64,000 nucleotides of DNA from an uncultured Clostridia bacterium (GTDB lineage Bacteria > Bacillota > Clostridia > TANB77 > CAG-508): contig CANQUT010000001.1 of NCBI GenBank assembly GCA_947627105.1, positions 5,980-69,979 of the forward strand, given 5' to 3'. The notes below the pieces were generated by a model. It saw only the letters and a list, made by a program, of their open reading frames with translations. It did not search any database and was not told the DNA's origin. The position numbers and the translations under genes were made by a program. Positions 5,601 through 23,414 of the stretch are shown in pieces. Every line of letters begins with the position of its first letter. The first letter of the stretch is position 1.

Positions 5601-7831
5601 ATGGAACATCTCATATACAAATGAATGCAAATAATGCAAGTTATGTAGAAAGTAAAGAAAAGAAAAAAGAAATCTCTCTTGGAACTATTAATCCAGGTCA
5701 AACTATTGTAAAAGAATATGAGTTAAAAATTGAAAAAGGGGTAAAATCTCAAACTATTCATGATGATTCTACAGGAAAAGATATTACAACACAAATTAAT
5801 GAATACCCAGGAGACAAAGATTTGCAAAACATTGTTAAAATATCTTCAAGTAATATAACAAACGAAATTGAATCAGATCCATATATTTTACATGTTAAAG
5901 AGGGAGATATAAGCATTATAGTAAAAGAACTTTTAACAAAGGGAAATGTATTAAAAAAAGGAGATAATCTTAAATATGAAGTAAATGTAAGCAATATTTC
6001 ATATACTAAAGATGCGGAAAACTTAACTTTAAATGTAAGATTGCCAGAAGGTATAAAAATAAACGATATATATTATCAAAAAGAAGGATCAGGAGAAAAA
6101 GTAAAAGATAATATTACAATTAATGGCAATACTGCTACTATAAATATAGGAACATTAAAAAGTATAAATAAATATTTAAGCAATCTTGGCGAAATAACTG
6201 AAGGTACAAAAATTGATAATATTTGTACAATGGCGTATGTATATATTGAATGTACTGTTGAAAGTTTCCAAGGAGAGCAAAACTTTGCAATTGAAGCTGT
6301 AGCAGATGAGATATTAACACATTATTCTAATATACAAAATATAAAAGCAGAAGAAGTTAAATTAACAATAGAGCAAGATGAGCTAAACCAAAAATATATA
6401 AAAGAAGGATCAGAATACATAACACATTTTAAAGTAAAAAATATTGGAGAAATAGTTTCTACTAAGAATGAAATAAACATGGTACTTCCAGAAGGACTAA
6501 GTTTTGTAAAAGTACAATATAAATATGGAGATCAAGAAGTAGAAAAACAAATATCAAAAGAAGACTCTTTAAATGTTAGTATTCATGAATTAGAAGCAGG
6601 TCAAACAATAGATATTTATGTTACACTAAAAGCTAAATTACTTTCAAATACAAATAGTAAAGAAGTAATTACTGTAGCTACATTAAAGGCAGATGGATTT
6701 GAAAAAATAGAATCAAACAGTCAAACAGCAATTATAGAATATGATGAAACTGTACATAACAGTAGTGAAAATGGAGGAGCAATTCAAAATAGTTATAAAA
6801 TAACAGGTATGGCATGGTTAGATAAAGATCAAGATGGTAAAAGAGCAAGCGATGAACAAGTTTTATCAGGTATTCAAGTTATTCTTTTAAACAAAAAAGA
6901 TAACACAATTGTTAAAACACAAGATACAGGAGAAAATGTTAGAACTATAACAAAAGATGATGGAACCTATGAATTTGTAAATATTCCTAAAGGAGAATAT
7001 TTAGTATTATTCTTATATGATACAAAATTATATGGTTTAACATCTTACAAAGCAAGTGGAGTATCAGAATCAATAAATTCAGATGCAGCTAGTATAAATG
7101 TTATTCTAAATGGAGAAGAAATAGTAGCAGGAATAACAGATACTATAGAGATTAAAAATTCAAATATAATGAATATTGATATAGGTTTATACTCTTATCA
7201 AAAATTTGACCTAAAACTTGATAAATACATATCTAAAATTACTAGAACTACTCCGACATCAGGAACAACTACAACAACTTATACACCAGAAAAAGGCAAA
7301 GTAGCAAAATCAGAAATATTATCAAAAAATCTTGGAGAAAGCAATGTTATTATTGAGTATAAAATTGTTGTAACAAATGAAGGTACGGTTAGTGGTTATG
7401 TTAAAAAGATTGTAGATTATTTGCCAAAGAATGTAAGATTTAGTACAACATTAAATAAAGATTGGTATTTATCAGAAAAAGGTAATATATATAATGCAAG
7501 TCTAGAAAATGAAGAAATAAAACCTGGAGAATCTAAGGAAGTAACATTAGTTGTTACAGCAGTAATAACTAATAGTAACTTAGGAATTTTAACAAATAAT
7601 GCTGAAATTTATGAAAGCTATAATAAGCAAGGTCTACCAGATATTGACTCAAAATCAGGAAACAATATGGCAAATGAAGACGATATATCAAATGCAGATT
7701 TAGTATTATCTCTTACAACTGGTAGGGTAGCTACATATATGATATTATTAATAGGAATTATTGTTTTAATAGCATTTGGTGCATTCTTAATAAATAGATT
7801 TATATTAACAGAAAAAGAAGAAGAATGGTAA
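2660..7831 (+). CDS. Giant secreted surface protein A1 (1723 aa): signal peptide, SdrD-B/CnaB-like fold, DUF11-type repeats, C-terminal TM anchor
   Basis: N-terminal signal peptide; WLDKDQDGKRASDE...DGTYEFVNIPKGEYLV (SdrD B-like); DUF11-like block NAEIYESYNKQGLPDIDS; C-terminal DISNADLVLSLTTG + hydrophobic helix + charged tail; paralog of 13357-18318. Confidence 0.85.
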   Translation: MKLKQKIITAFTTTILLGSYLLPVGNLAIATATAELESQTSKTNNPNVEFNTYLEGNTHENTYNLTEGGKLYIELKVKENGYLKNGIVEFSNCNYNFNSNEINSEYIQKIENNAIYLKQISNEDSIRIELPISFKKEEAINIEEFNKESKAKLKGSYINIEGKEILIEKEITNKLKWEAEAEAKVNAEITKYIPYKLGEEYGLLLQTKINSGINENILPIASTSLEVSVPVINNKKADVVKVIANKTIATNGEESGLNFTSENYEYNENENKVKINVNNKVNTQGNMAWKNGEDEYLITCIYKEKEIYDYVKGQLEKANSTKITEEQIANGDNNINAINMPTQVNGIITVYGIEQKQIQVNSSFSSIIQEEKGELSDSTVKTINNISKGYIYANYAKEENEKQVEEKEQTIYELTYNAQIYSTDILKEIKFITEEEKIFAENTEYEIGKNIITKEVKINEAIFKKILGEEGNLQVLDKSNNVLGEINSLSQKDDQGNYILNIEEKNINEVIVKASNPITEGSLEVKVEKAFVKNQSFSQEQMKTFTKILITSNIETNTNNKNYNMEITLQEPVSKAEIKVEEEKQTLSTVVVNKDVNINVVLDTSSVQNALYKNPVIKIVMPSEIKKVDLKDANLLLDDELKIENKKVTTENGKQIINITLKGTQTEYENYSDIEQNNVITKGANIILKADLTLDMLASSQTEKIYMYYTNENTNLYENVNNEDSNKIYGIATTDIDISAPTGVILASGISNYSSKAQEIISISDINATIETYVEKRIATIYGKVINNHKNEITDVVILGRIPAKNNIKIDEEDELGSNFSTYLNSPIVVSGINKENYEIYYSDKANATKNLEDNSNGWKEESNTSSKSYLIVIKNYNMQKGKEIDFEYNVEIPEKLSYNNNSYGVYKVYYNNVSEIGTIAETKTSPIINISTGDGPKLDIKLSSMSDTVREGQIVKIIATIKNVGEMAAENAKLIIDAPDGTSHIQMNANNASYVESKEKKKEISLGTINPGQTIVKEYELKIEKGVKSQTIHDDSTGKDITTQINEYPGDKDLQNIVKISSSNITNEIESDPYILHVKEGDISIIVKELLTKGNVLKKGDNLKYEVNVSNISYTKDAENLTLNVRLPEGIKINDIYYQKEGSGEKVKDNITINGNTATINIGTLKSINKYLSNLGEITEGTKIDNICTMAYVYIECTVESFQGEQNFAIEAVADEILTHYSNIQNIKAEEVKLTIEQDELNQKYIKEGSEYITHFKVKNIGEIVSTKNEINMVLPEGLSFVKVQYKYGDQEVEKQISKEDSLNVSIHELEAGQTIDIYVTLKAKLLSNTNSKEVITVATLKADGFEKIESNSQTAIIEYDETVHNSSENGGAIQNSYKITGMAWLDKDQDGKRASDEQVLSGIQVILLNKKDNTIVKTQDTGENVRTITKDDGTYEFVNIPKGEYLVLFLYDTKLYGLTSYKASGVSESINSDAASINVILNGEEIVAGITDTIEIKNSNIMNIDIGLYSYQKFDLKLDKYISKITRTTPTSGTTTTTYTPEKGKVAKSEILSKNLGESNVIIEYKIVVTNEGTVSGYVKKIVDYLPKNVRFSTTLNKDWYLSEKGNIYNASLENEEIKPGESKEVTLVVTAVITNSNLGILTNNAEIYESYNKQGLPDIDSKSGNNMANEDDISNADLVLSLTTGRVATYMILLIGIIVLIAFGAFLINRFILTEKEEEW

Positions 7832-7847
7832 AAGAAGGAGGTAAAAT

Positions 7848-10800
7848 ATGAAGATTAAAAAATATAAAAATTTTGGAATTTTGTTATTTATTTTAATAAT
7901 TACAATAGCAATAATACCTAATTTTATTATTACATTACTTGATAATATAATTGAAAAAGATTCTCCTTCTGCCTATAGTTTTTCACAAGGTGATATATAT
8001 TCATTAGGAATTGTATTTGGAGAACAGAGACAAAAAATAGAATGGACAGGATCACAATTTGGACCAGAAGATAGTGTAACAGGTTACGGAGTTGTAGATG
8101 GAAAAACAGTACCAAAACAAGATCCATATATCTTATACTGTACAGAATATGGTACGGGTTTTTGGACAGGCAATGGAACAAGACATTATGCAACTTCACT
8201 TGAAGGATCTTATGGTACAATAGAACATTATTATAAATCGAATCCACATGAAAGTATAACATACACGGGTAAATGGCATTGTACAGGGATTCATATTGAA
8301 CAAAAATATGATGGAGAACTAAGTTTTCCATGGCTTGTTAAAGAAAGTGATATAAACTTAATTAAAGCAGGTGGGGATGAAAATATATCATTAGCTTATG
8401 CACTAACTTCTAAAGAAATAGATAAATATAGTGAAGAAAAGCAAATGGCAATTTGGGCATTAAAAGGTCAAAGAGGACAAACAAGTTTATCAGAAGAAGC
8501 TAAACAATATGCTAAATATTATGAAAAAACACAAGTAGATAGAGGAAGTACAGAACTTCCAGATTTAGATATTAAAGGATCAGCAGAAGATTTAAAAGTA
8601 TTAGCACACTATGATGAACAAAAAGGTGGAACATTAACAATTGGTCCAATTAATTTAACATATATTAATCAAAATAATGATAGTATTGCTTTTGAAGGAA
8701 TTTCTGCAATGTATTTTAGAGGCTATAATAAAAAAGGTGAAATGGTTAAAGGAAAAACATCTGCAGATAGAATAAAAGTTGAATATGTTATTGACTCTAA
8801 TGGAAAATATGTACCAAAATTCTTTAATCCAAAAAAAGAAGAATGTTATGTAGATCACAATAAACAAGCTTACCCAGATGGCCAAGGAGATGGAGAATTT
8901 TACTTAGTAATAAAAGATCCAAACATTGGAAAGACTTCTAAAGATGAAGATTTTATAGCTGAGTTAGACTTAAGAATTACTTTTAAATGGATGACAATAT
9001 TTGATGCCCAAGTTAGTAATTTTAACTCTTATGAATATCAAGTAAATTGGTATGAACATTTATACCCAATAACACATTCAGATCCAGATTATTCATATAA
9101 TTTAGAAACTAAAAGATGGGAGGTAAGTGGATATCATTCTGACTCAAGTTGTTTAAAACGTGTTAAATTAGAGGAGGCTAGTCTTCAAAAAGTACTTTGC
9201 TATTATGGCGGAGGAAGAGAACTATTTACTACAACATTTACTATAGGAAATGTTGGAGAAAGAATAAATATTACTATGGACTTAGGAGGAAATGTTTGGG
9301 AAGATGGTTTATCTACTAAAGAATCAAAAGCAGATGGCTTAAATAGTACTCCAGCAGAAAATGGAAATAATATTGATAAAAATCTTAGCAATATAAAAGT
9401 TAGTTTATGGAAAGTTCAAAAAGCAGGAAGTATACCAGGAGAATTTATCACATATACATATACTAATGAAAATGGAAATTATATGTTTACAGGTTTAAAT
9501 CCATTACTTAAATATTATGTTTCATTTGAATATGATGGACAAAAATACTTATCTACTGAATATTTAAATGCAGGTTCATCAAGATATGATTCAGTAAATG
9601 ATATGATAAATGCTGGTGAATATAATGGATCAGATATATGGCATGCTACTTCAAAAGGAACTGAGACTTCAAGTGAAAGAGAAGCTTATAACCAAAGATT
9701 TTCAGAGATAGGTTCAGCACCTAAAAATTATCCATCAGATGATTCTTTATCAAGCGGTGCATTAGTAGAAAGCTATAACGAAGCATTTTCAATGTATGAC
9801 TTAATGGGCTTTAAATTAGATGAAAATGGTAAATATTATATAGATTCAAATCTTGCTTTAATAGATGGATACTATACAGTTGAAAACGGAAATATTGTAG
9901 TAACAAATAAATATCAAAAAGGTAGAATTTCACAAGAAATTGAAAAATATATTAAACAATATTCAGATAGTGAAAAGTCTAGAATGAGATCTGAACTAGA
10001 AGCTTTGATTGCACAGCAAAAAGCAGACTGGAATAAAAAAGTAGATGAAGCTAAAGTAACTCAAGAAAATAATATTACAAATGACTTAAAAGGAAATTCA
10101 GATTATACAGATAGTTATGGAAATCTAACACAAAAAGGATTAGATAAAGTAAAAGAAGAAGTTCAAAAAATAGAAAATCAAAGATCTAGTGGATTAAGTA
10201 AAATAGAAAAACAAAAAGAAGTTAGTTTAGAATATATTGAAAAATTAGAAATAGTTCCAGACTATAACACAATGATAAAAGATGTTTATAAAACTATTGC
10301 AGGCTCAGATACTAATATGTGGAGAAAATTACAATTTATTGAAGACAGCAAAATAAGTTCTTATACACAAAATAATAGTGAGAAATTAGACTTATACCCA
10401 GTATATGATGACTTTTATCTAAACTATTTAGTAGATAATGATGCTGGTACAGGAAAGAAAAAATATGACACAATTGAAGACCAAATGAAAGATTCTTATG
10501 ATCAAACAATTATTACAGTAGATGGTATAGACTATAAACCAATTTACGAAGGACAATTCTTTGTAAATTTAGGACTATGGAAAAGACAGCAAAATAATAT
10601 GTCTATAAGAAAAGATATATATCGTGCAGCTACTAGAATAAACGGTAAAACAGAAGTATATAAATATAATAAACGTGAAGATAATAAGGATTATTGGGAA
10701 ATTCAGCTAAGAATGAGTGATTACGAATATTATTATGGAGGACGTTATAATAGAGAGTTATATAAATCAGATTATGAATATGATACAAAATCTACAAACC

Positions 10801-13148
10801 TAAATGGAAGTAACTTAGAATTATATGTAACATATAAAATAAGTTTAAGAAATACTTCTCAAGGAATAATAAACGAAATTACAGAAGTTGTAGATTATTA
10901 TGATAAAGATTATACTTATGTACCAGATTTATCTTGGGTAATGTATACAAATAGTGGAAACGATGAGGAAATGTCAGTTCCAGAAGACTCATATTATAAT
11001 ATGATACACAAATTAGATAGAAGCAATATAAAATATGCAAAAGAAGTAAATGGAAAAGAAAATAGTAAATATGGAACAGCCTCACAATCAGATATAGAGA
11101 AAGATTATAATTCTTTATATATACAAGGATTACAAAATAAAAAACTAGCAACTGGTGAGGAAGCATATATATATTTAACATTTAAAGTAAACTTAGATAA
11201 TAATGGACATATTATATTAGATGAAGATGATAGTCTAAAAGAAAATCTAGTTGAAATAAACGGATTCAAAAACTATTACAATAATGGAACTAACTTACCA
11301 AACAATGTAACAATTAGTGGAGATAGTACACCAGCAGGATTAATAGACTTTAACTCAACACCAGGTAACTTAGAAGCAAGCGACTTAATTGGAGAAAGAT
11401 ATGAGAAAAACTTTGAAGATGATACTGATAGGGCTAAAAGTTTAAAAGTATTTTTAGATGAAAATGCAGTAAGGTATCTAAAAGGTACAGTTTGGGAAGA
11501 TAAAAGAACTCAAAATGTAAGTAATGCAATAATTGGTGATGGTGTAAGACAAGCTGGAGAAATTGGTATAGCAGGAGTAGAAGTAGATTTAGTAGAAAAA
11601 ATGACAAATGGAAACGAATATATATGGCAAAAAACTACAACTGGTGCAGATGGAACTTATGAATTTTCAAGCTACATACCTGGAGACTATATTGTTAGAT
11701 TTAAATATGGAAGCAATAATAGCACTGTTCTTACAAAAGAACATGGAGGAAGTAATGCAGTATCATACAATGGACAAGACTTTAAATCAACAATATATAG
11801 TAAAGACTTAAAAAATAATAAGGTTTTATTAGATAACAACGAAAAATATTACAATATTCTAGAGGCAGATAAATTAAGCTTAAATCAAAAACTTAATTTA
11901 TCAGATGCAAAAGACTTATGGGAAAGAAGAACTGAAGTAAATAATTATAGTACTTCAAATGTAACTAACCATAAAGCAGAGGTTTTATCATCACCTTATG
12001 CACAAACTATAGATAATAACAACATATCAGAGTTAATTACAAATACAAATATGGTAGCAGAGACACCAATTATAGTAGTAGAAGGAGAATATGATAGAAC
12101 AAAAACAGATGGTTATAATACAGAAAGTAATGGCAATGATTTATACTTATTTGATAATGATGCTAATGGTAATTTCATATTAAATAATGTAGATTTTGGA
12201 CTTACAGAAAGACCAAAAGCTGGATTAGAGCTTAACAAAAAAATAACTAATTTAAAACTTACTTTATCAAATCAATCAGTAATATTTGATACCAATCAAA
12301 CAGTTAAAAACTTATCATGGAGTAAAGGAAAAGAATATAATTTAGCAAATAATATAAAAGGTAATAAATATGAAGAATATTACGAAGAAAGTAAAACAAA
12401 TAGCCAATATAATCGTTACTCATATAGATCAGAAATTAGTAATATTATAAACTCACTTTACTTAACTGGTAAAAATGGCTTGCTACAAGTTGTTTTAGAT
12501 CAAGAACTTATGCATGGTGCTACTATTGAAATTACTTATGATCTAACAGTTAAAAATATAGGTGAAACAGACTACGTAGGACAAGACTTCTATTATTTAG
12601 GAACAGGAGCATCTACAATTGTATTAACATCTGCAAACACAGTATTAGATTATATATCAAACAATTTACAATATAGAGAAGTTGATAATACAGGTTGGGC
12701 TATAACTACATCAGAAGAAGTTTTAAGAAATGGATTAGTTAATAATAGATTAGCTGATAATGTAAAAAAATATAGTAATATCATAACAACAAGTCAATTA
12801 AATACTAACTTAAAACCAGGAGATGAAGTAAGCAAAAAACTAATATTATCACAAACAATGTCAACAAATAATGGAAACGATAATAAAGTTTATGAAAATA
12901 TCTCTGAAATTGTTGAAACATCTAATACAGTAGGTAGAAGAATGGCATATTCAATTGTAGGAAATCAAAATCCAGATGAAATACCAACAGAAGTAGATAG
13001 CAGTAAAGCAGAACAGGTAGTAGTAATACCACCATTTGGTTCTCAAAATTATGTATATTACATAATTGCAATATCAATAGTAATAGTATTAGCTATAGGT
13101 ATTATACTAATTAAAACAAAAGTCCTAAGAAGAAAAGATACATTATAA
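7848..13148 (+). CDS. Giant thioester-domain (TQxA-type) adhesin B1 (1766 aa) with two SdrD-B/CnaB-like domains; N- and C-terminal TM segments
   Basis: GGAGG RBS 16 nt after A1 stop (operon); Cys motif YILYCTEYG and Gln motif EEKQMAIWAL about 100 aa apart (thioester domain signature); GTVWEDKRTQ...DGTYEFSSYIPGDYIVRF; C-terminal VVVIPPFG + TM + KTKVLRRK. Confidence 0.85.
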   Translation: MKIKKYKNFGILLFILIITIAIIPNFIITLLDNIIEKDSPSAYSFSQGDIYSLGIVFGEQRQKIEWTGSQFGPEDSVTGYGVVDGKTVPKQDPYILYCTEYGTGFWTGNGTRHYATSLEGSYGTIEHYYKSNPHESITYTGKWHCTGIHIEQKYDGELSFPWLVKESDINLIKAGGDENISLAYALTSKEIDKYSEEKQMAIWALKGQRGQTSLSEEAKQYAKYYEKTQVDRGSTELPDLDIKGSAEDLKVLAHYDEQKGGTLTIGPINLTYINQNNDSIAFEGISAMYFRGYNKKGEMVKGKTSADRIKVEYVIDSNGKYVPKFFNPKKEECYVDHNKQAYPDGQGDGEFYLVIKDPNIGKTSKDEDFIAELDLRITFKWMTIFDAQVSNFNSYEYQVNWYEHLYPITHSDPDYSYNLETKRWEVSGYHSDSSCLKRVKLEEASLQKVLCYYGGGRELFTTTFTIGNVGERINITMDLGGNVWEDGLSTKESKADGLNSTPAENGNNIDKNLSNIKVSLWKVQKAGSIPGEFITYTYTNENGNYMFTGLNPLLKYYVSFEYDGQKYLSTEYLNAGSSRYDSVNDMINAGEYNGSDIWHATSKGTETSSEREAYNQRFSEIGSAPKNYPSDDSLSSGALVESYNEAFSMYDLMGFKLDENGKYYIDSNLALIDGYYTVENGNIVVTNKYQKGRISQEIEKYIKQYSDSEKSRMRSELEALIAQQKADWNKKVDEAKVTQENNITNDLKGNSDYTDSYGNLTQKGLDKVKEEVQKIENQRSSGLSKIEKQKEVSLEYIEKLEIVPDYNTMIKDVYKTIAGSDTNMWRKLQFIEDSKISSYTQNNSEKLDLYPVYDDFYLNYLVDNDAGTGKKKYDTIEDQMKDSYDQTIITVDGIDYKPIYEGQFFVNLGLWKRQQNNMSIRKDIYRAATRINGKTEVYKYNKREDNKDYWEIQLRMSDYEYYYGGRYNRELYKSDYEYDTKSTNLNGSNLELYVTYKISLRNTSQGIINEITEVVDYYDKDYTYVPDLSWVMYTNSGNDEEMSVPEDSYYNMIHKLDRSNIKYAKEVNGKENSKYGTASQSDIEKDYNSLYIQGLQNKKLATGEEAYIYLTFKVNLDNNGHIILDEDDSLKENLVEINGFKNYYNNGTNLPNNVTISGDSTPAGLIDFNSTPGNLEASDLIGERYEKNFEDDTDRAKSLKVFLDENAVRYLKGTVWEDKRTQNVSNAIIGDGVRQAGEIGIAGVEVDLVEKMTNGNEYIWQKTTTGADGTYEFSSYIPGDYIVRFKYGSNNSTVLTKEHGGSNAVSYNGQDFKSTIYSKDLKNNKVLLDNNEKYYNILEADKLSLNQKLNLSDAKDLWERRTEVNNYSTSNVTNHKAEVLSSPYAQTIDNNNISELITNTNMVAETPIIVVEGEYDRTKTDGYNTESNGNDLYLFDNDANGNFILNNVDFGLTERPKAGLELNKKITNLKLTLSNQSVIFDTNQTVKNLSWSKGKEYNLANNIKGNKYEEYYEESKTNSQYNRYSYRSEISNIINSLYLTGKNGLLQVVLDQELMHGATIEITYDLTVKNIGETDYVGQDFYYLGTGASTIVLTSANTVLDYISNNLQYREVDNTGWAITTSEEVLRNGLVNNRLADNVKKYSNIITTSQLNTNLKPGDEVSKKLILSQTMSTNNGNDNKVYENISEIVETSNTVGRRMAYSIVGNQNPDEIPTEVDSSKAEQVVVIPPFGSQNYVYYIIAISIVIVLAIGIILIKTKVLRRKDTL

Positions 13149-13153
13149 AGTAA

Positions 13154-13199
13154 AAAAGCTTTTATAGAATTAATTATTCTAATAAAAGCTTTTTTTTTA
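13154..13199 (+). terminator. Rho-independent terminator after B1
   Basis: AAAAGCTTTTAT...ATAAAAGCTTTT stem followed by T9. Confidence 0.7.
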
Positions 13200-13298
13200 T
13201 GCTATTTTTTATTTAATAATGCAAAATACAAAATTACCTACGGAAACCCCTAAATTAACCCAAAATTCACATAATATGGAAAAAATAATGGAAATACA

Positions 13299-13327
13299 TT
13301 GAAAAATTGGTAAGAATGTCGTATAAT
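13299..13327 (+). promoter_or_regulatory. Sigma-A promoter of A2-B2 operon (TTGAAA-17-TATAAT)
   Basis: Consensus -35/-10 hexamers with 17-nt spacer, 30 nt upstream of RBS. Confidence 0.6.
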
Positions 13328-13356
13328 AGAATAAGAGTTTATTTTAGGAGGTTACA

Positions 13357-16300
13357 ATGAAAAAAATAAATCAAAAAATTATAGCCTTAATTTTAACTAT
13401 ATTACTAATTGGAACAAACCTAATTCCTCTAGGGAACCAAGTAATTGCGGCGAATTTATTAGAACAAAATAATAAAACAAGTAATAATAATGTAACATTT
13501 GATAGTTATTTAGAAGGAAATGTACATAATAAAATTTATAATGTAGAAGAGGAAGCTAAACTATACATAAAACTAAATGTATATAATACAGGGTATCTAA
13601 AAAATTCAACAATTACTATTTCAAATAATGCTAATTATGAAATAGATACAGCTAATTTAAAAAATGAAAACATATTATCTATGACTTCAAACCAAATAAC
13701 TATAAAACAAATTAATAGTAATGAAGAAGTAACTATAGAATTACCAATTAAAATAAAAACAGCAAATAGTGTAGAAAAAGATTTCGCACAAAAAGTTTCA
13801 GAAGTTTCATTAAATGCAATATATGTAGATGATAATGGAATAGAAAAAAACATAACAAAAACGATAAATAATCAAGTTATATGGAAAGAGCAAATGGAAT
13901 TAAATTTAAACTATGAAGTAACAAAATATATTCCATATAAACAAGAACAAGAATATGGTGTTTTATTGCAAACTGTAATAACAAGCAGTGTAAAAGACCA
14001 TGTTTTACCAATTTCAAAAACAGAATTAGAAATGTATGCACCACAAATAGAAAATGCAAAACCAACATCAGTAAATGTAATAGCAAATAAAACATTAAAT
14101 ACAAATTCAGATGAAAGTGGAATTAATTTTGAAACCTCAAATTATCAATATGATGAATCTACAGGCAAACTTACTATTACAGTAAGCAACATAGAAAACG
14201 AAAATAAATTAATTTCTTTAAATCCAAATGGTGTAGATGAATATATTGTAAACTTTATTTATAAAGGAAAAGAACTTTATGAAAAAATGTTAGAAAAAAC
14301 ATTTCAAACATCAATGAATGTAATAGGAAAAGTAACTATTGAAGATAGTGAACAAACATTAATAAAAAAAGATATTCAAGTTGAATATAATGAAAAAGAA
14401 GTAAAAGGTGTTTTAACAGATATTACACCTATAATTAAAACATCTATTAGCAAAGGAAACATATATGCTAATTATGATAAAAATGAAAATAAAAAAGAAA
14501 CAAATTATGAATACAGCTATATAGCACAAATAAATGAATTAAACCTTACAGAACAAGTACAAATGCAAACAGCAAAAGACTATTATTTAGACAATAACTC
14601 AAATGAATTTCCATTAGAAAATAATAGTTATATAAAACAAATAAAAATAGAAAAAAACAATTTTGAAAAAATACTTTCAGAAGAAGGAACAATAGAAATT
14701 AACAAAATAGATGGAACAAATATAGGAACAATAAATAAAGATACAAAACTAGAAAATAATAACTACATTTTAGATATTTCAGAAGCTAAAATGCAAGAAA
14801 TACAAATAAAAACAAGTAAGCCAGTATCAGTAGGAAATTTAGAAATAAAAATATTAAAAGCAATAATAGACGAGCAAACATATTCTAAAGAAGAAATGAA
14901 ACAATTTACCAAAATAAAATTAGGCATAATTAATAAAAGCGTAGAAAAAAATTTAGAATTAAGTTCTACTATTTCTTTAATAGAACCAGTAAGTACAGCA
15001 GAAATTACTATATCAGAAGAAAGTAAAAATTTATCAACAGTAGTAAAAAATGAAAATGTGGAAATTAAAGTAGTTCTAAATACATCTAATGTAGAATATG
15101 CTTTATATAAAAATCCAGTATTAGAAATAGAATTACCAAGAGAAATAGAAAAAGTTGATATTAAAGATATTAAAATTTTATTAGATGATGAGTTAAAAAT
15201 AGTAGAAAAACAAGTTATTACAAAAAATAAAAAACAAGTTATTCAAATTACTTTACAAGGAACACAAACAAATTATACAGAAACTACAAAAAGCGTAGAA
15301 GAAAATGTAATAGCTAAAGGTGCAAATATAATTATTAACGCAGATTTTACTTTAAATAAATTTGCTGTAAGTAAAGAAGATAAAATAACAATGTATTATA
15401 CAAACGAAAATACAAACTTATATGAAACTCCTACGAAAGAAGATATAGTAAGAGGAGTAGTATCTACTAATGTTAACATAGTAGCACCAAATGGAGTTTC
15501 AGCAATAAATAAAATAACTAACTATAATGCTAAAAACTCAGAATTAATTTCCTTAAACAGTGAAAAACAAGAAGCAATTATACCAGCAAAAGCAGAAAAG
15601 AAGACATTAACTATAGAAGGAATAATTACAAATAATTATGAAAATTCTATTGAAAATGTATCTATTTTAGGAAGATTGCCATTTAAAAACAATAAAGCTG
15701 TAGATGGAGAAACTTTAGGAAGTACATTTACGATGCCAATGGTACAAAAGATAGAATTTAGTGGAATAAGCAAAGATCAAGTAAAAGTATATTATAGCCA
15801 AAATGAAGAAGCAACAAAAGAATTAGAAAATACTTCAAACGAATGGAAAGAACAAATAGATGACTTATCTACTATAAAAAGCTACCTTATTGTTATATCA
15901 GGAAAAGTAGAAAAACAAACACAAATTAAATTTAATTATAAAGTAGAATTACCAGAAAACATAGGAACAGATAACAGTTCGTATGAAATGTACAAGGTAT
16001 ATTATAACAACAAAACACAAGAAGCAACTATAGGAGAAACAAAAATCTCAGGTATATTAGGTATATTAACAGAAAAAGCACCAGAATTAGAAATAACTTT
16101 AAACTCTAATGTCGAAGCAAATGGAATAGTTACAGAAGGACAAATTGTAAAATTCTTTGTAGAAGTAAAAAATATAGGAAAAGAAGAAATAAAAGATGCA
16201 GTATTAAATATTCCTGTTCCAAATGGAACTATTTATACTACATATAATTCTTCAGAGCAATTATATGTAGACTCTAATAAGCAAGCAATACAAATTTCAC

Positions 16301-18318
16301 TTGGAAATATAGGTGTTAATGGAGTAGCAAAAGCAAGTTATGATCTTAAAATGGGACAAGCAACATTAGGAAATATATCTAATAAAGTAAATGTAACAGC
16401 ACAAAACATAGAAGAAGCTGTTAACTCAAATGAATATATACTTACAAAAGTAGAAGGAAAATTAATATTAACATTATCTGCACCAAGAGATCCTAATGCT
16501 ACACTTAATAAAGGAAATATATTATATGCTACATTAATTTTAGAATCAAAAGAACAATTAAATAATGTAGTAGTAAATATAAGTATTCCAAATGGTATAA
16601 AAATAAATGAAACAAGCTATATAGACAAAGATGGAAACACACAAGACTATGTTCAAGTTCAAAATAATACTGTAATAGCTAATATTCCAAAATTAGAAGC
16701 AAACTATTTACAAAGTATTAAATTAAATCTTGAAATAGATAGCTTTACAGGTGATTTTAACTTTATTGCAAAAGCATCTTCTAATGAAACTAAAGAACAA
16801 ATATCTAACTTAATAAAATATCATGTTGGGGCACCAGAATTTGAAATTACACAAGCTTCATCTTCAGAAAAATATTTAAAAGAAGCAAAAGAAATTATAT
16901 ATGAATTTACTATGAAAAATGTAGGAGATTCAGATGCAAATGATGCCATATTTGAAGATGTGTTACCAGAAGGCCTAACATTTAAAAAATTAGAATATAC
17001 AAGTAAAGGAAAAATGCAAGAAATAAATTCTACATTAGATAATATAGCAAAAGTAAGATGGACCAAATTTGAACAAGGTGCTACGGAAACAGTAAAAATT
17101 ACAGCACAAGCAGACTTATTAGATGCAGAAAAGAAAGATAAAACGGTTAACAACATAGGTACAATTACAGCACAAGGAATAGAAAGTAAAAAATCAAATA
17201 ATATTACTACTATTATAGAATATAATCCAGAATTATATAAAGATAATAATCAAAACAATAATGAAATTACAGATAATAGTGCACTATACAAAATTACAGG
17301 TATAGCATGGTTAGATGAGAATAAAAATGGCAAAAGAGATGAAACAGAAAATTTATTATCAGGAATAGAAGTAAAATTATTTAAAAGAGAAAATAGTGAA
17401 CTTGTAAAAGATATACAAGATGGTACAGAAAAAACAACCAAAACTTTAGCAGACGGAAGTTATGAATTTACTAATTTAGAAAAAGGAAACTATGTAATAG
17501 TTTTCTGCTATGATGCTGGTAAATATAATGTTACAGATTATCAAAAAGAAAATATTAGTACAAGCTATAATTCAGATGCAGTTTCAATGCTAGTTACTTT
17601 AAATGGAAAGCAATTCCATGCAGGAGTAACAAATACTATAAATGTAACAAATGAAAATGTTAGAGACATAGATATTGGTTTATATGTAGCAAACAAATTT
17701 GACTTAAAAATAGACAAATATATTAATAAAATTACAGTAACTAATCAAACATCTGGAACAAAAACATATAACGTAAATAATTCAAAATTAGAAAAAGTAG
17801 AAATTTTTAAAAAAGATGTTAACAAATCAAGTATTGTTATTGAATATAAAATAGTTGTAACAAACGAAGGTGGACTTGAAGGCTATGCTAAAAAAATAGT
17901 TGACTATTTACCAAAAAATACTAAATTTAGTTCAGAATTAAACAAAGATTGGTATATTTCAGATAACAATAATGCAGTATATAACACAAGTTTAGAAAAT
18001 ACTATTTTAAAACCTGGAGAAAGTAAAGAAATAGCACTTACTTTAAGTGCACAAATTACAAATAGTAATATAGGAACAATTATTAATAATAATGCAGAAA
18101 TTTATGAAGCTTATAATGAATACGGAGAGCCAGATATAGATTCTATAGAAGCTAACATGATAGAAATAGAAGATGATATATCAAAAGCAGACATTATACT
18201 TTCTACAGCAACTGGTACAATAGTTATTTATTCAGGCTTAGTATTAGCAATATTATTTATTTTAGTAATTGGAACATTAGTAATAAGAAGAACTTTTAAA
18301 GAAGAAAATATATTATAA
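13357..18318 (+). CDS. Giant secreted surface protein A2 (1653 aa), paralog of A1
   Basis: Collinear similarity to A1 from signal peptide through SdrD-B-like (WLDENKNGKRDETE...DGSYEFTNLEKGNYVIVF) and DUF11-like region; C-terminal DISKADIILSTATG + TM + RRTFKEE. Confidence 0.85.
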   Translation: MKKINQKIIALILTILLIGTNLIPLGNQVIAANLLEQNNKTSNNNVTFDSYLEGNVHNKIYNVEEEAKLYIKLNVYNTGYLKNSTITISNNANYEIDTANLKNENILSMTSNQITIKQINSNEEVTIELPIKIKTANSVEKDFAQKVSEVSLNAIYVDDNGIEKNITKTINNQVIWKEQMELNLNYEVTKYIPYKQEQEYGVLLQTVITSSVKDHVLPISKTELEMYAPQIENAKPTSVNVIANKTLNTNSDESGINFETSNYQYDESTGKLTITVSNIENENKLISLNPNGVDEYIVNFIYKGKELYEKMLEKTFQTSMNVIGKVTIEDSEQTLIKKDIQVEYNEKEVKGVLTDITPIIKTSISKGNIYANYDKNENKKETNYEYSYIAQINELNLTEQVQMQTAKDYYLDNNSNEFPLENNSYIKQIKIEKNNFEKILSEEGTIEINKIDGTNIGTINKDTKLENNNYILDISEAKMQEIQIKTSKPVSVGNLEIKILKAIIDEQTYSKEEMKQFTKIKLGIINKSVEKNLELSSTISLIEPVSTAEITISEESKNLSTVVKNENVEIKVVLNTSNVEYALYKNPVLEIELPREIEKVDIKDIKILLDDELKIVEKQVITKNKKQVIQITLQGTQTNYTETTKSVEENVIAKGANIIINADFTLNKFAVSKEDKITMYYTNENTNLYETPTKEDIVRGVVSTNVNIVAPNGVSAINKITNYNAKNSELISLNSEKQEAIIPAKAEKKTLTIEGIITNNYENSIENVSILGRLPFKNNKAVDGETLGSTFTMPMVQKIEFSGISKDQVKVYYSQNEEATKELENTSNEWKEQIDDLSTIKSYLIVISGKVEKQTQIKFNYKVELPENIGTDNSSYEMYKVYYNNKTQEATIGETKISGILGILTEKAPELEITLNSNVEANGIVTEGQIVKFFVEVKNIGKEEIKDAVLNIPVPNGTIYTTYNSSEQLYVDSNKQAIQISLGNIGVNGVAKASYDLKMGQATLGNISNKVNVTAQNIEEAVNSNEYILTKVEGKLILTLSAPRDPNATLNKGNILYATLILESKEQLNNVVVNISIPNGIKINETSYIDKDGNTQDYVQVQNNTVIANIPKLEANYLQSIKLNLEIDSFTGDFNFIAKASSNETKEQISNLIKYHVGAPEFEITQASSSEKYLKEAKEIIYEFTMKNVGDSDANDAIFEDVLPEGLTFKKLEYTSKGKMQEINSTLDNIAKVRWTKFEQGATETVKITAQADLLDAEKKDKTVNNIGTITAQGIESKKSNNITTIIEYNPELYKDNNQNNNEITDNSALYKITGIAWLDENKNGKRDETENLLSGIEVKLFKRENSELVKDIQDGTEKTTKTLADGSYEFTNLEKGNYVIVFCYDAGKYNVTDYQKENISTSYNSDAVSMLVTLNGKQFHAGVTNTINVTNENVRDIDIGLYVANKFDLKIDKYINKITVTNQTSGTKTYNVNNSKLEKVEIFKKDVNKSSIVIEYKIVVTNEGGLEGYAKKIVDYLPKNTKFSSELNKDWYISDNNNAVYNTSLENTILKPGESKEIALTLSAQITNSNIGTIINNNAEIYEAYNEYGEPDIDSIEANMIEIEDDISKADIILSTATGTIVIYSGLVLAILFILVIGTLVIRRTFKEENIL

Positions 18319-18332
18319 GTGGGAGGCAAAGA

Positions 18333-21300
18333 ATGAATAGTAAAAATAAAATAGCACTTCTTGTAACAGGAATACTAGCAGTATTTATTACATTAGTAAT
18401 AATGTTTGCTACTATAGTTCAAGTAAATGGCAGAAAAATTCAAGAAGTAGCTAAACTTACAAAAGAAGCACTTACAATAAATAGTTCACAAGCTAATGGA
18501 AGTATAAAAACACCTGGAGCACATAACGGAAGTAGTAGTCTTTGGGTTGAAGCATTACCTAGTAATATAAATAAAGTATTTATTCCAACAGTTGGAAACG
18601 CACAACTATATTGTATAGAAAAAGGTGTTAGTTTAAAATCTGGATTAGAAAGAGTTTCAACAATTAAAGCATTAAAAGGAACATCTGGAAGTGTTAGTTC
18701 TTCTAGTTGTATGGCTTCTCTTCCAGAAAAACGTTATTCAAATACTTATTATGAATGTGTTAATAATCATACAGAAATGGTTCCATCTGGAGCATATATA
18801 GTTACAGCACCAGATAATTTCATAGCACCTTATGATGGAGTATATTCATATGGTTCATCTAGTAGCTTCAAAAAAGGTGAAAATATTAGCCAAGAAGTAA
18901 GACAAGTAGCAATTTGGTTAAATCCTGAAATGAATAAAGGAGAAAACTTTTATGAAAGTGGAGCTACATTTACATATATAGATATGGCAGAGCAATTAAA
19001 GGATGAAGCAATGGATTATAGAGATTATGAAAATAACTTAAAAAATAATGTAAATAATCCAATAAAAGATGCAACTTCTGACAAAATAAAAGTAAGTGTA
19101 GACCAAAAAGAACAAGTATTAATCTTAGGACCATATAAAATTAATTATGTAGAAGGAAACTCTGCATCAGCAAAATTTGCCGGAATTTCTAATATGGTTA
19201 TAAGAGGTTACAATGATAAGGCAAGAAAAGCATTTATTAAAAACTTAGAAATTGTAAGCTACATTCAAAATGGTAAAGAACATAAATTAGATTTCTTTAA
19301 TCCATTAAAAGAAAATGGCTATGTAGATAAAACAGCAAACTCATACCCAGTTAGCATGCAAGAATTTTACATTAAAATAAAAAATCCAAATCAAGGTATT
19401 TCAAATGGTGAGAAAAAAGTAAAATATATTGATATAAATGTAGAATATTCTTACATGACTGTTTATGCAATTCAATGTAATTTAAAAGGACATCAATTAG
19501 TTGCAACACCTATTCAAACATCACATAGTAATAGCTATCATTATAAATATGGCTATTTAACTTCTTGTAATGTGGGTTATCGTTGGAATGTAACTGAAAA
19601 TCCTTTAAAACAACAAGATGTAATAGATGCATGGGGAGAAAGAAACTTATATAAATTAAATATTAATTTAAAGGGTAATGTAGACGATATTACTACAGAT
19701 ATAACTATGAAATTAGGAGGTTATACTTGGGAAGATATACCAGAAGGAAAAGAAAATTTATCAAATGGTATAAAAACAGATGAAGATATAATTATTCCTA
19801 ATGTAAAAGTAACATTATATGAATGCATAATGGATTCTAATGGAAATGTACAATATAAAAATGGAAAACCACAAGCAAATGTTGCAAACTTATTATCTGA
19901 AGTAGACAAAGGAGAATTATCAGGGGAAGAATTACAAAACAGAGTTAATCCAAAACTTACAAATGCAAATGGCTACTATCAGTTTGATGGTTTAGATGTA
20001 TTTAAAAAATATTATGTTACATTTGAATATAATGGACAAATTTATATGTCTACAGATTATTTGCAAATAGGAAGCGGAAGTCACCAAAATTCTGTACAAA
20101 GCATGGTAAATGCTAAACTTTATAATACAGATATATGGGCTATAACTTCAAAAACATCAGAAATCTCAAGTGTAAGAACAGAATATAATAACAAATTTGC
20201 AGAAATTGGTTCATCACCAAAAGGTTATAGATCTAGTGATTCTTTAAAAAGTGGCAAACTAATAGAAGGCTATAATGAAACATTTTCTATAAATGATTTA
20301 TTAGGTTATGAATTACAAGAAAATGGTACATATAAATCAGTAGGACCAAGACTAATAGATGAGAAATATGTACTTGATGCAAATGGAAATGTAATAGAAG
20401 CACAATCTATTACAGAAGGCTTAATTAGCCAAAAAATTAAAGAATATATAACAAAAAATTATAAATACCCAGATAAAAATGCTTTAATTTCAATTTATCA
20501 AAATATTGTAAGGGAATATGCAAAAAATAGTAAAGATCAAGAAATTCTTTGGAAAAAATTACAATATATAGAAGACTGTAAAATTGAAGCATATACAGCA
20601 TCACCTTATGAAAAAGGAAATATAGATTTATACCCAGTATATAATAAATTTGTAGTAGATACACAAAGTGCTGTAATACCAGGAATTGGCACAATGCCAC
20701 CAATATATAATGGACAATATCATATAAATTCAGGACTATGGAGAAGACAATTAAATAATGTAGCATTAAGAAAAGATATTTATCGTGCAGCAACAAGAAT
20801 AAATGGAAAAACAGAAGTATATAAATATGATAAACGTTCTTCAAATGAAGATTACTGGAGAATTGAATTAAGAATGCAAGATTATCAAAACTATTATGGT
20901 TCTTACTATAATAGAGAAATATATCCATCAGATTATAATTATAAAGCATTAGCTACAAATTTATATGGTGAAGAATTAGAACTATATGTTACATATAAAA
21001 TCTCTATTAGAAATATATCACAAGGTATTTTAAATGAAATTACTGAAGTTGTGGATTATTATGATAAAGATTACACATATATGCCAGGTTTATCTTGGGT
21101 AATGTACAATGAAAACGGTATAGATGAAGAATTATCTATTCCAGAAAAATCTTATTATGATATAATGAACAACTTAAATTTAAATGGACTAAAATATGCA
21201 AAAAATATTAATAGCACTTATTCAAGTGTGCAAAATGGAAATGGTACTTATTGTGGTGCAAGCATTTACCAAGATGCATCAAAATCAGACTTAGAAAAAC

Positions 21301-23414
21301 AATACAACTCTGTATATGTACATGGACTAAACAATAAAAAATTACAAACAGGTGAAGAAGCATACATTTATTTAACATTTAAAGTAAATTCAGATGATAA
21401 AGGTCCAGTTATATTAGATAATGATGACAGTTTAAAACAAAACTATGTTGAAATTAATGGTTATAAAAGCTATTATAAAAACGGAACTAAACTACCAAAT
21501 AACATAACAATTAATGGTAATAATACAGTAGCAGGAATTATAGATAATAACTCTACACCTGGTAACTTATGCTTAAATGATTTACAAGGAGAAAAATACG
21601 AGAAAAACTTTGAAGATGATACAGATAGAGCAAAAAGTATAAAAGTTGCTTTAGACATAAATGCAATTAGAGAAATAAATGGTACAGTTTGGGAAGATGA
21701 AAGAACACAAACTGTAAATGGTGCAATAATAGGAGACGGCGTAAGACAAACAGGTGAAATAGGAATTAAAGGTATAACTGTAGAACTAGTAGAAAAACTA
21801 GCAAATGGAAGCGAATATGTATGGCAAGTAGCTGAAACTGATGAAAATGGTTTATATAAATTTACAGGCTTCATACCAGGAAATTATATTGTTAGGTTTA
21901 AATATGGTAATGATGTAAAAACTGTTTTAACAGAGGCAAATGGCGGAGAAAATGCAGTATCATATAATGGTCAGGACTTTAAATCAACAGTGTATAGTAA
22001 AGACTTAAAAAATAATATAACAGTTTCAAAATATACAGACGAATATTATAATATCTTAGAATCAGATAAACTAAGTGTTAATAAAAATGCAAATGTATCA
22101 GATGCAAAAGATATATGGGAAAGTAAAACTATAAACACTGGTAGAACAACAAATAATCAAACTAAATATCAAAATGAAAGCTATCAAGGAAGAACTAATG
22201 TTAATAATTATTCTTCAGGAGCTATAGGAAATTCTAAAGCACAAATATTAGCATCACCATATGCACAAAACATTAATAATAGCATGATACAAGAACTAAT
22301 AGCAAATACTAATATGGTAGCAGAAACTGCTATTATTAAAACAGAAGTAGAATATGATAGAACACTTTCAAATGGTAACAATACAGAAAGTAATGGAGAA
22401 CAATATTTATATAATAATGATAAAAACGGAGAATATGTTTTAAACAATATAGACTTCGGACTTACAGAAAGACCAAAAGCTCAAATAGAACTTGATAAAA
22501 AAGTAACTAATGTAAAATTAACTTTAGGAGATGGTCAAATAGTATTTGATACAAATAAATCTGTAGACAATTTATCTTGGCTTAAAGGTAATTCATATAA
22601 TTTATCTAACCAAATGAAAAACAATAAATATGAAGAATATTATAGCCAAAGTAAAACAAATAAATCATTTAATCGTTATTCATATAAAACACAAATTAAC
22701 AACTTAATTAATTCACTTTATAAAAACGGAAGAAATGGATTAATACAAGCAATAATAGATTCAGAGCTTGCACATGGAGCAACTATTCAAGTTTCTTATG
22801 AATTGATGGTTAAAAACGTAAGTGAAACAGATTATTCTAATAAAGATTTCTATTATTCAGCAACTGGTGCATCAGATAATTACAAAGTAACAACATCTGC
22901 TAATATGGTAATAGACTATGTAGCAAATAACTTACAATATAGCGCATTAAATAATGCAGGATGGACACTTGTAAAATCTCCTAATAGTACAATTGCAGAT
23001 GGCTTAGTTGATAATAATATAAAAGATAAAGCAAACTCATATAATAACATAATAGCAACTACACAATTAAGCAAAAATCTAAAACCAGGTGAAAATATAA
23101 CTAAAGATTTATTATTATCACAAATAATTTATAACGGATCTGAATCAGATAATAAATCTTACGAAAATATTTCTGAAATTGTTCAAACAACTAATACAGT
23201 TGGTAGAAGAATGGCATATTCAATTGCAGGTAACCAAGATCCAACAGCAGAACCTACTGAAGTAGACAGTAGCAAAGCAGAAACAATAGTTGTAGTTCCA
23301 CCATTTGGTTTAACACAAATTTTATATATAGGAATCGCTTTAGCAGTAGTTACTATATTAGCAGTAGGAATCGTATTCATTAAGAAGGGGACAGGTCCCA
23401 ATGCTCGTTTTTAA
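18333..23414 (+). CDS. Giant thioester-domain adhesin B2 (1693 aa), paralog of B1
   Basis: GGGAGG RBS 14 nt after A2 stop; QLYCIEKG Cys motif and EVRQVAIWLNP Gln motif; many blocks identical to B1 (RKDIYRAATRINGKTEVYKY, EEAYIYLTFKVN); C-terminal VVVPPFG + TM; last ~9 codons and the stop lie inside repeat element R1. Confidence 0.85.
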   Translation: MNSKNKIALLVTGILAVFITLVIMFATIVQVNGRKIQEVAKLTKEALTINSSQANGSIKTPGAHNGSSSLWVEALPSNINKVFIPTVGNAQLYCIEKGVSLKSGLERVSTIKALKGTSGSVSSSSCMASLPEKRYSNTYYECVNNHTEMVPSGAYIVTAPDNFIAPYDGVYSYGSSSSFKKGENISQEVRQVAIWLNPEMNKGENFYESGATFTYIDMAEQLKDEAMDYRDYENNLKNNVNNPIKDATSDKIKVSVDQKEQVLILGPYKINYVEGNSASAKFAGISNMVIRGYNDKARKAFIKNLEIVSYIQNGKEHKLDFFNPLKENGYVDKTANSYPVSMQEFYIKIKNPNQGISNGEKKVKYIDINVEYSYMTVYAIQCNLKGHQLVATPIQTSHSNSYHYKYGYLTSCNVGYRWNVTENPLKQQDVIDAWGERNLYKLNINLKGNVDDITTDITMKLGGYTWEDIPEGKENLSNGIKTDEDIIIPNVKVTLYECIMDSNGNVQYKNGKPQANVANLLSEVDKGELSGEELQNRVNPKLTNANGYYQFDGLDVFKKYYVTFEYNGQIYMSTDYLQIGSGSHQNSVQSMVNAKLYNTDIWAITSKTSEISSVRTEYNNKFAEIGSSPKGYRSSDSLKSGKLIEGYNETFSINDLLGYELQENGTYKSVGPRLIDEKYVLDANGNVIEAQSITEGLISQKIKEYITKNYKYPDKNALISIYQNIVREYAKNSKDQEILWKKLQYIEDCKIEAYTASPYEKGNIDLYPVYNKFVVDTQSAVIPGIGTMPPIYNGQYHINSGLWRRQLNNVALRKDIYRAATRINGKTEVYKYDKRSSNEDYWRIELRMQDYQNYYGSYYNREIYPSDYNYKALATNLYGEELELYVTYKISIRNISQGILNEITEVVDYYDKDYTYMPGLSWVMYNENGIDEELSIPEKSYYDIMNNLNLNGLKYAKNINSTYSSVQNGNGTYCGASIYQDASKSDLEKQYNSVYVHGLNNKKLQTGEEAYIYLTFKVNSDDKGPVILDNDDSLKQNYVEINGYKSYYKNGTKLPNNITINGNNTVAGIIDNNSTPGNLCLNDLQGEKYEKNFEDDTDRAKSIKVALDINAIREINGTVWEDERTQTVNGAIIGDGVRQTGEIGIKGITVELVEKLANGSEYVWQVAETDENGLYKFTGFIPGNYIVRFKYGNDVKTVLTEANGGENAVSYNGQDFKSTVYSKDLKNNITVSKYTDEYYNILESDKLSVNKNANVSDAKDIWESKTINTGRTTNNQTKYQNESYQGRTNVNNYSSGAIGNSKAQILASPYAQNINNSMIQELIANTNMVAETAIIKTEVEYDRTLSNGNNTESNGEQYLYNNDKNGEYVLNNIDFGLTERPKAQIELDKKVTNVKLTLGDGQIVFDTNKSVDNLSWLKGNSYNLSNQMKNNKYEEYYSQSKTNKSFNRYSYKTQINNLINSLYKNGRNGLIQAIIDSELAHGATIQVSYELMVKNVSETDYSNKDFYYSATGASDNYKVTTSANMVIDYVANNLQYSALNNAGWTLVKSPNSTIADGLVDNNIKDKANSYNNIIATTQLSKNLKPGENITKDLLLSQIIYNGSESDNKSYENISEIVQTTNTVGRRMAYSIAGNQDPTAEPTEVDSSKAETIVVVPPFGLTQILYIGIALAVVTILAVGIVFIKKGTGPNARF

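Follow-up and report, generated by a model that had tools for sequence, protein, structure and literature searches.

Gene organization and the shared C-terminal end

The DNA analyzed here is a 64,000-nucleotide stretch from an uncultured Clostridia bacterium of the order TANB77 (assembly GCA_947627105.1, contig CANQUT010000001.1, positions 5,980 to 69,979 of the forward strand). It is called the window below, and its G + C content is ~27%. Four giant open reading frames (ORFs) lie in the same direction on the plus strand and form two tandem pairs in the order A1-B1-A2-B2 (Table 1), with the start of B1 17 nt from the end of A1. A1 and A2 share 41% identity, and B1 and B2 share 57% identity across their C-terminal ~1000 amino acids. 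By eye, the N-termini of A1 and A2 have a basic n-region, a hydrophobic core, and an A-x-A-like site, and those of B1 and B2 have a basic region followed by a long hydrophobic segment. All four proteins end in the same way, and an earlier note on this DNA had proposed that this end could be an undescribed protein-sorting tag. On balance, the shared tail is best explained as a divergent form of a known signal, the Gram-positive LPXTG cell-wall anchor, and not as a separate sorting system.

The four C-terminal sequences read exactly as quoted in the earlier note. The tripartite architecture described there, consisting of a motif, a transmembrane helix, and a short charged tail, was confirmed, and hundreds of relatives have conserved it. 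In all four proteins, the layout comprises an acidic loop, the pattern D-x-S-x-A-[DE]-hhh, five residues ending in Gly, a hydrophobic helix of 23–24 residues, and a tail of 10–12 residues. The ends read DISNADLVL-SLTTG in A1 and DISKADIIL-STATG in A2, each followed by 23 hydrophobic residues and then by the tails NRFILTEKEEEW and RRTFKEENIL, respectively. Those of the B proteins read DSSKAEQVVV-IPPFG in B1 and DSSKAETIVV-VPPFG in B2, followed by 24 hydrophobic residues and the tails KTKVLRRKDTL and KKGTGPNARF. The five-residue segment, hereafter the pentapeptide, is located 33–35 residues before the C-terminus, inside the 17–45-residue range of LPXTG-like pentapeptides, which its sequence resembles only in part. 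The 23–24 residues after it are uncharged in all four proteins and form a predicted helix in the AlphaFold2 (AF2) models of A2 and B2.

Two details of the original description hold for three of the four proteins. The Lys in the motif is present in A2, B1, and B2, and is replaced by Asn in A1. The Lys/Arg-rich tail, a feature of LPXTG signals, is present in A2 (RR), B1 (RRK), and B2 (KK) and in the family consensus I-K-K-K-V-L, while the A1 tail (7793–7828) contains two basic and four acidic residues. The tails of the clade to which the window belongs (IKRSFKEE..., IKKGTGPNARF) have drifted from this consensus. Elsewhere in the window, a hydrophobic end with basic residues was found only in unrelated multi-pass membrane proteins, and no other secreted-protein-like ORF has such an end.

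Table 1 Features of the two giant gene pairs and their C-terminal modules (window positions)
Feature	Position	Strand	Description
Gene A1	2660..7831	+	1723 aa; signal-peptide-like N-terminus, DUF11/CLIPPER and SdrD_B domains, C-terminal anchor
A1 terminal Ig-like domain	7202..7708	+	aa 1515-1683; final strand DISNADLVL at 7682-7708
A1 pentapeptide	7709..7723	+	SLTTG, at the LPXTG position
A1 helix and tail	7724..7828	+	Helix 7724-7792, tail NRFILTEKEEEW 7793-7828; tail net acidic
Gene B1	7848..13148	+	1766 aa; N-terminal hydrophobic segment, SdrD_B domains, C-terminal anchor
B1 internal motif copy	11415..11456	+	EDDTDRAKSLKVFL, aa 1190-1203; SdrD_B domain directly after, no membrane helix
B1 terminal domain	12216..13025	+	aa 1457-1726; homolog of the A domain with insertions; ends DSSKAEQVVV at 12996-13025
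B1 pentapeptide	13026..13040	+	IPPFG
B1 helix and tail	13041..13145	+	Helix 13041-13112, basic tail KTKVLRRKDTL
Gene A2	13357..18318	+	1653 aa; A1 paralog; DUF11/CLIPPER and SdrD_B domains
A2 terminal Ig-like domain	17695..18201	+	CLIPPER-type, aa 1447-1615; predicted last strand aa 1608-1617 (ISKADIILST)
A2 pentapeptide	18202..18216	+	STATG; reached by the end of the last strand, with A-T-G as predicted coil ahead of the helix
A2 helix and tail	18217..18315	+	Helix 18217-18285 (AF2 helix, model residues 175-204), tail RRTFKEENIL
Gene B2	18333..23414	+	1693 aa; B1 paralog; SdrD_B domains
B2 internal motif copy	21612..21653	+	EDDTDRAKSIKVAL, aa 1094-1107; SdrD_B domain directly after, no membrane helix
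B2 terminal domain	22476..23294	+	aa 1382-1654; ends DSSKAETIVV at 23265-23294
B2 pentapeptide	23295..23309	+	VPPFG
B2 helix and tail	23310..23411	+	Helix 23310-23381 (AF2 helix, model residues 280-305), tail KKGTGPNARF

The terminal Ig-like domain

The segment D-x-S-K-A-[DE]-hhh is predicted to be the final β-strand of the last Ig-like (CLIPPER/DUF11-type) domain rather than a tag, because it forms a strand in the AF2 models and because B1 and B2 contain internal copies of it that are not followed by a membrane helix (Table 1). In the model of A2 (last 207 aa, 34 aligned homologs, mean pLDDT 91.6), ISKADIILST is the last strand of an Ig-like sandwich (model residues 162–171), followed by the three-residue coil A-T-G and a 30-residue helix. 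The weaker model of B2 (pLDDT 70) has the same order, with strands S-S-K and T-I-V-V-V (model residues 265–267 and 270–274), a P-P-F-G coil, and a helix. In both models, the last strand and the helix are 3–5 residues apart. The pattern D-[IS]-S-K-A-[DE]-x-[IV]-[LV], which had been taken as the possible sorting tag, would thus be mostly this last strand. The other option offered in the earlier note, a conserved juxtamembrane segment, fits the first nine residues, and it survives as a live rival reading of the pentapeptide. The candidate recognition element is the pentapeptide adjoining the helix, which is S-x-x-T-G in A and [IV]-P-P-F-G in B.

A K...E...N-x-A pattern runs through the terminal domain, with K8 and E50 near-invariant and N132 invariant among 34 aligned sequences. 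The corresponding residues of A2, K1454, E1496, and N1578, are a candidate isopeptide triad with a CLIPPER/CnaA-type pattern. DUF11 (PF01345), now called CLIPPER, is an isopeptide stalk domain of fibrillar adhesins and is often found alongside sorting domains (PMC12617251). The terminal domain of the window proteins resembles CLIPPER in the K...E...N-x-A pattern and the predicted Ig-like fold, and this likeness would account for the first half of the motif. However, the terminal copies in the window proteins are under the Pfam threshold of PF01345 and give only weak TIGR01451 matches (22.2 bits in A1). PF01345 matches were obtained for upstream copies of the domain in A1 and A2 and also for homolog fragments. 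When the A2 model was compared with PDB structures by Foldseek, the matches were all generic Ig-like domains (an integrin calf domain plus helix, CARDB, and pilins) and were uninformative for the tail.

Distribution and common origin of the A and B modules

Scanning one genome per species uncovered 335 related stretches. The best 80 of these were inspected for their source, and all were from uncultured gut Clostridia, Clostridium sp., or Bacillota metagenome-assembled genomes (MAGs), with rabbit, mouse, human, Hadza, deer, and chicken as sample sources. They include a circular 1.57 Mb MAG (OZ007016.1) and Clostridium sp. CAG:508, which we take to be placed in the order TANB77 by GTDB. The top identity among the relatives was 87% (rabbit MAGs), and A2 and B2 of the window are also present on an ENA metagenome contig. 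Almost all loci that reach far enough downstream have a B gene immediately after the A gene, and spoIIE adjoins them in several loci.

Some genomes have two A-B pairs, as does the window. The A-B pair, a conserved operon-like unit (window 2660–23414; loci L003–L007, L001/L002, and L079), is duplicated in tandem as A-B-A-B in the window and in rabbit-gut MAGs. The upstream B copies in the rabbit MAGs read IPPYG (GPPYG once), and the downstream copies read IPPFG, VPPFG, or TPPFG. In two long-read assemblies (L001, 5459–10570; L002, 358–1855), the A gene is split into several ORFs beside transposase and PDDEXK genes, with B and spoIIE intact. Either these assemblies are prone to frameshifts, or the broken A gene is a true pseudogene.

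The A and B terminal modules are homologous. Profile–profile alignment with hhalign gave a probability of 99.6% and an E-value of 9.8e-24 over 221 columns, and the match spans the first strand, the acidic loop, the last strand, the pentapeptide (STATG opposite VPPFG), the helix, and the tail. The tails of the two families align nearly gap-free as G-x4-Y-x~12-G-x3-I-K-K-K-V-L. These alignments indicate that the terminal domain and the anchor were inherited as one module by common ancestry. Because common ancestry of domain and anchor would account for the shared end in all four proteins, a portable tag is not needed to explain it.

A specific pairing of A and B helices, or gene conversion between them, was also considered and judged unsupported, since the helix identity of A and B from the same genome (0.267) was no higher than that across genomes (0.257, p 0.2). 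Tail identity was slightly higher within genomes than across them (0.49 vs 0.45, p 0.006), which could be an effect of lineage composition.

Conservation of the pentapeptide

The T-G pair of the A family is invariant, being present in 58/58 anchored fragments, 34/34 aligned sequences, and 75/75 classified ORFs, and the A relatives share only about 40–50% identity in the adjoining domain. The residues ahead of T-G follow [SGTA][VILTAM]x, with occasional SPGTG, NPATG (two relatives), SPRTG, and SPETG. Among 86 B ORFs, the pentapeptide is LPPFG in 57, TPPTG in 9, IPPYG in 4, IPPFG and VPPFG in 3 each, and IPPTG, LPPTG, and MPPFG in 2 each. VPPTG, TPSTG, TPNTG, TTNTG, and SPDTG occur in more distant B relatives, in many cases ahead of a polar stretch (such as G-E-N-R-N-Y) like that of classic signals. 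Conservation is much higher in the pentapeptide columns than in those around them.

Because most of the distant B relatives examined carry x-P-x-T-G, this is probably the older B state. The form with Phe or Tyr, which includes the window proteins, looks derived in this comparison, yet itself under selection. In nine genomes with a TPPTG-type B protein (L057, L061, L064–L066, L069, L071, L076, and L078), the third residue of the A motif is always Lys ([GS][ITV]KTG), and in genomes with LPPFG-type B proteins this position is mostly Val or Ala. The association of Lys with TPPTG could be a lineage signal or a co-adaptation to one enzyme.

A coincidental or paralog-only resemblance, under no functional constraint, has next to no probability left. 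Within the window, the four proteins are indeed two paralog pairs, but the tail is not confined to these four paralogs. The genome collection contains 335 related stretches, the tail is carried by 667 clusters at 50% identity, and this distribution, together with a pentapeptide far more conserved than its neighbors, refutes coincidence.

Search for a portable tag

Recognized sorting tags typically sit on diverse cargo proteins. An exhaustive search of 1.84 billion cluster representatives with a tail-only profile (four strand residues, pentapeptide, helix, and tail) retrieved the 667 clusters at E ≤ 0.001. All but one of the best 150 match at the extreme C-terminus. In the 143 of the best 150 that were examined, every parsable tail is attached to an A-type (E-D-D-x-S-x-A-D) or a B-type (E-x-D-S-x-x-A-E) domain end. 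In both word-indexed and exhaustive searches with the tail-only profile, the matches examined were all A- or B-type ends, and a portable tag was rejected on this basis. Two apparent outliers of the indexed search (P0114 and P0112) came from B-like genes that lie after an A gene and are interrupted by assembly gaps, and their contigs show them to be the 3′ ends of these genes. To judge from these searches, the module is widespread but tied to two homologous domain ends, and the undescribed tag suggested for it does not look portable.

These results bear on the idea of a new sorting system, in which an enzyme other than a sortase, such as an intramembrane protease or an unrecognized transpeptidase, would read x-x-x-[T/F/Y]-G together with the helix and I-K-K-K-V-L and process both A and B. 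A single enzyme acting on T-G and F-G would need just the Gly and the helix and tail features common to A and B, and the tails of the window proteins match no described sorting-domain model. Nevertheless, we regard such a system as quite improbable: among the best 150 of the 667 clusters the tail is confined to A- and B-type ends, relatives have bona fide x-P-x-T-G motifs that match the LPXTG model, and no conserved candidate enzyme gene flanks the operon, whose neighbors are spoIIE, minC, a penicillin-binding protein (PBP) gene, or mobile elements.

Comparison with known sorting signals

The closest likeness is to the LPXTG signal (TIGR01167/PF00746). The window proteins share with it a pentapeptide ending in Gly at 33–35 residues from the end, a helix, a charged tail, and the context of secreted Ig-like multi-domain adhesins, and orthologs with LPPTG, IPPTG, or TPPTG reach the model cut-off. 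The cut-offs are 15.9 bits for TIGR01167 (LPXTG_anchor), 20 bits for PF00746, and 23.5 bits for Rumino_NPXTG (NF033846). An LPPTG ortholog (L072) scores 21.1 bits on TIGR01167 and another scores 14.3, and 8 of the 28 x-P-x-T-G relatives match this model at E ≤ 0.016, which is roughly the cut-off. Therefore, the earlier view that the motif matches none of the LPXTG, PEP-CTERM, and PGF/PEFG-CTERM signals cannot be extended to the relatives, which read LPPTG, IPPTG, VPPTG, TPPTG, and SPxTG. The cut-off of PF00746 was not reached by any tail scanned (best 14.7 bits).

Among 109 tails with S-x-x-T-G, LPPFG, or IPPYG, the only matches to other sorting models were to the sortase-type models Rumino_NPXTG (6), EF0750_LPXTG (7), and LPxTATN (1) and to Loki-CTERM (1, weak, E 0.008). 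Of the sorting-domain models, Rumino_NPXTG had the best E-value with these tails (6/109, best E 7.2e-5), and the NPATG of two A relatives resembles its motif. However, the sole bit score seen, 18.8, is below the cut-off, and the tails of the window proteins have no match to it. The PEP-CTERM/exosortase, PGF-CTERM/archaeosortase, and GlyGly-CTERM/rhombosortase systems have a similar tripartite C-terminal architecture, but their models matched none of the tails scanned (window tails at E ≤ 10, nine further tails, and 137 tails of relatives at E ≤ 0.016), and no such enzyme was found in the window.

Two characterized sortase systems provide precedents for parts of the motif. The class B sortase Spy0129 of Streptococcus pyogenes accepts EVPTG of Spy0128 and VPPTG of the adhesin Cpa (PMC3019223). 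As in Spy0128 and Cpa, a P-P-T-G-type motif directly follows the last Ig-like domain in B relatives, some of which have exactly VPPTG. In contrast, the pilus-building sortase of S. pyogenes is a product of the same operon, whereas no sortase was found within 10 kb of 77 A/B loci; the A and B proteins, of ~1700 aa, are not pilin-sized, and most B proteins have Phe or Tyr in place of Thr. The substrates of Clostridioides difficile SrtB carry (S/P)PXTG (PMC4155245). This motif is likewise clostridial and non-LPXTG, starts with Ser or Pro, and ends in T-G, and some A relatives have SPGTG, SPRTG, or SPETG. Most A proteins differ from it in having Val, Ile, or Thr at the position of the Pro. NVQTG was considered as a precedent for a motif without Pro and was discarded, as the peptide was uncut by C. 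difficile SrtB in vitro (PMC4155245).

Literature searches returned only unrelated plant peptide papers for LPPFG and found nothing joining TANB77 with a sortase.

Wall-sorting signal or membrane anchor

We lean, with a little better than even confidence, towards the reading that the tail is a cell-wall sorting signal of the LPXTG class that has diverged and follows directly on the final strand of the last stalk domain, and that A is cut by a sortase encoded elsewhere in the genome. The A and B proteins would be exported through Sec via their N-terminal signals, and the helix and charged tail would hold the exported proteins at the membrane. The putative sortase would then cut the A proteins between T and G and join the stalk to peptidoglycan. 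In the B proteins of this sub-lineage, the scissile Thr appears to have been swapped for Phe or Tyr. Because of this replacement, B may be cut by a sortase of altered P1 specificity or may remain membrane-anchored.

Several observations weigh against a functional LPXTG-class signal. The last ~70 aa of the window proteins, scanned against NCBIfam and Pfam at E ≤ 10, gave no match to LPXTG or any other sorting-signal model, with 18 bits of B1 to the EF0750_LPXTG C-terminus as the sole match, and TIGR01167 matched none of the 109 control tails with S-x-x-T-G, LPPFG, or IPPYG. A lacks the Pro of LPXTG, B lacks its Thr, and the tail of A1 is acidic. We know of no characterized sortase that cuts after an aromatic residue. 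The helix and tail of the A and B families are unusually conserved in sequence for an LPXTG signal: the Tyr at +5 and the Gly four residues ahead of I-K-K-K-V-L are retained, which exceeds the needs of a disposable retention signal. Finally, the sortase signature TLxTC is absent from all six frames of the 64 kb window, and TLxTC patterns and phmmer detected no sortase within 10 kb of the 77 related loci (1.4 Mb). The phmmer query was a Staphylococcus aureus SrtA sequence, which was run on all ORFs of the 77 loci and the window. Pfam sortase, exosortase, and rhomboid families were likewise absent from those window ORFs that lie outside the giant genes and encode at least 150 aa, three nested reverse-strand ORFs being unscanned, and the earlier statement that the window has no sortase-like gene is borne out by the six-frame and Pfam scans. 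The missing nearby sortase says little, because housekeeping sortases are usually unlinked to their substrate genes.

A possible but clearly less probable alternative is that the tail is a relic of an LPXTG-type signal that is no longer cleaved, so that a type I transmembrane helix tethers the stalks permanently. In that case, T-G and P-P-F-G would be conserved as a structural hinge, a helix cap, or an interfacial aromatic between the last Ig domain and the helix. The spacing of just 3–5 residues between the last strand and the helix is consistent with such an anchor, as are the sequence-specific conservation within the helix and of I-K-K-K-V-L in both families and the lack of a sortase near any of the 77 loci. 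The failure of the window tails on LPXTG models points the same way, and most B proteins have Phe or Tyr for Thr, aromatics being typical at membrane interfaces. However, a helix cap would allow Ser, Asp, or Asn, yet the T-G of A is invariant at about 40–50% identity, and P-P-x-G of B is likewise nearly invariant. The negative test for co-evolution of the A and B helices, which leaves a specific pairing between them unsupported, also argues against a permanent anchor of this kind.

The conserved Phe or Tyr at the position of the sortase-motif Thr is the one surprising feature. It is unlikely that the module involves an enzyme of unprecedented specificity (a sortase for both LPPF|G and S-x-x-T|G, or a non-sortase keyed to the Gly, the helix, and I-K-K-K-V-L), or that A is cleaved while B is kept in the membrane. 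In the latter case, A and B would form a two-tier giant-adhesin pair, one linked to the wall and the other to the membrane.

Neighboring genes and N-terminal regions

The giant genes are flanked upstream by a PBP fragment and minC and downstream by spoIIE, with rpoB and rpoC farther off. minC (840–1466) is not followed by minD or minE on the plus strand. The gap between minC and A1 contains instead three small minus-strand ORFs of 83, 135, and 53 aa that are rich in Asn and Lys, one of them with a hydrophobic end (840–2364 with minC included). The ORF at 26496–28019 encodes a WG-repeat protein with an N-terminal membrane segment, and Pfam gave nothing at E ≤ 0.01 for the ORFs at 28100–29335 (411 aa) and 51525–52784 (419 aa).

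The N-terminal regions of B1 (7848–9200) and B2 (18333–19700) share Y-C-[IT]-E and [KR]-Q-[VM]-A-I-W, reminiscent of the Cys and the T-Q-x-A-[IV]-W Gln of thioester-domain (TED) adhesins. The Cys and Gln columns are ~80% conserved among 77 B orthologs. A TED identity was rejected, as no TED or TQXA model in Pfam or NCBIfam matched at E ≤ 10 and no PDB sequence matched, and only the resemblance of the motifs remains.

Implications

The A-B pairs constitute a very large, unannotated family of giant adhesins in uncultured gut Clostridia. They occur in hundreds of these bacteria from rabbit, mouse, human, ruminant, and chicken samples, and probably rank with the largest structures on the surface of these organisms. 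The A and B anchors go unrecognized by standard annotation models, and the proteins would therefore be labeled simply as membrane proteins. For genome scanning in general, the case teaches that a "motif" adjacent to a membrane helix may turn out to be mostly the closing strand of the domain before it. Depending on its outcome, the exchange of Thr for Phe or Tyr would either extend the specificity known for sortases or document a wall-anchoring signal becoming a membrane anchor. Viewing S-x-x-T-G and LPPFG as derivatives of LPXTG provides a testable route into the cell-surface biology of this lineage.

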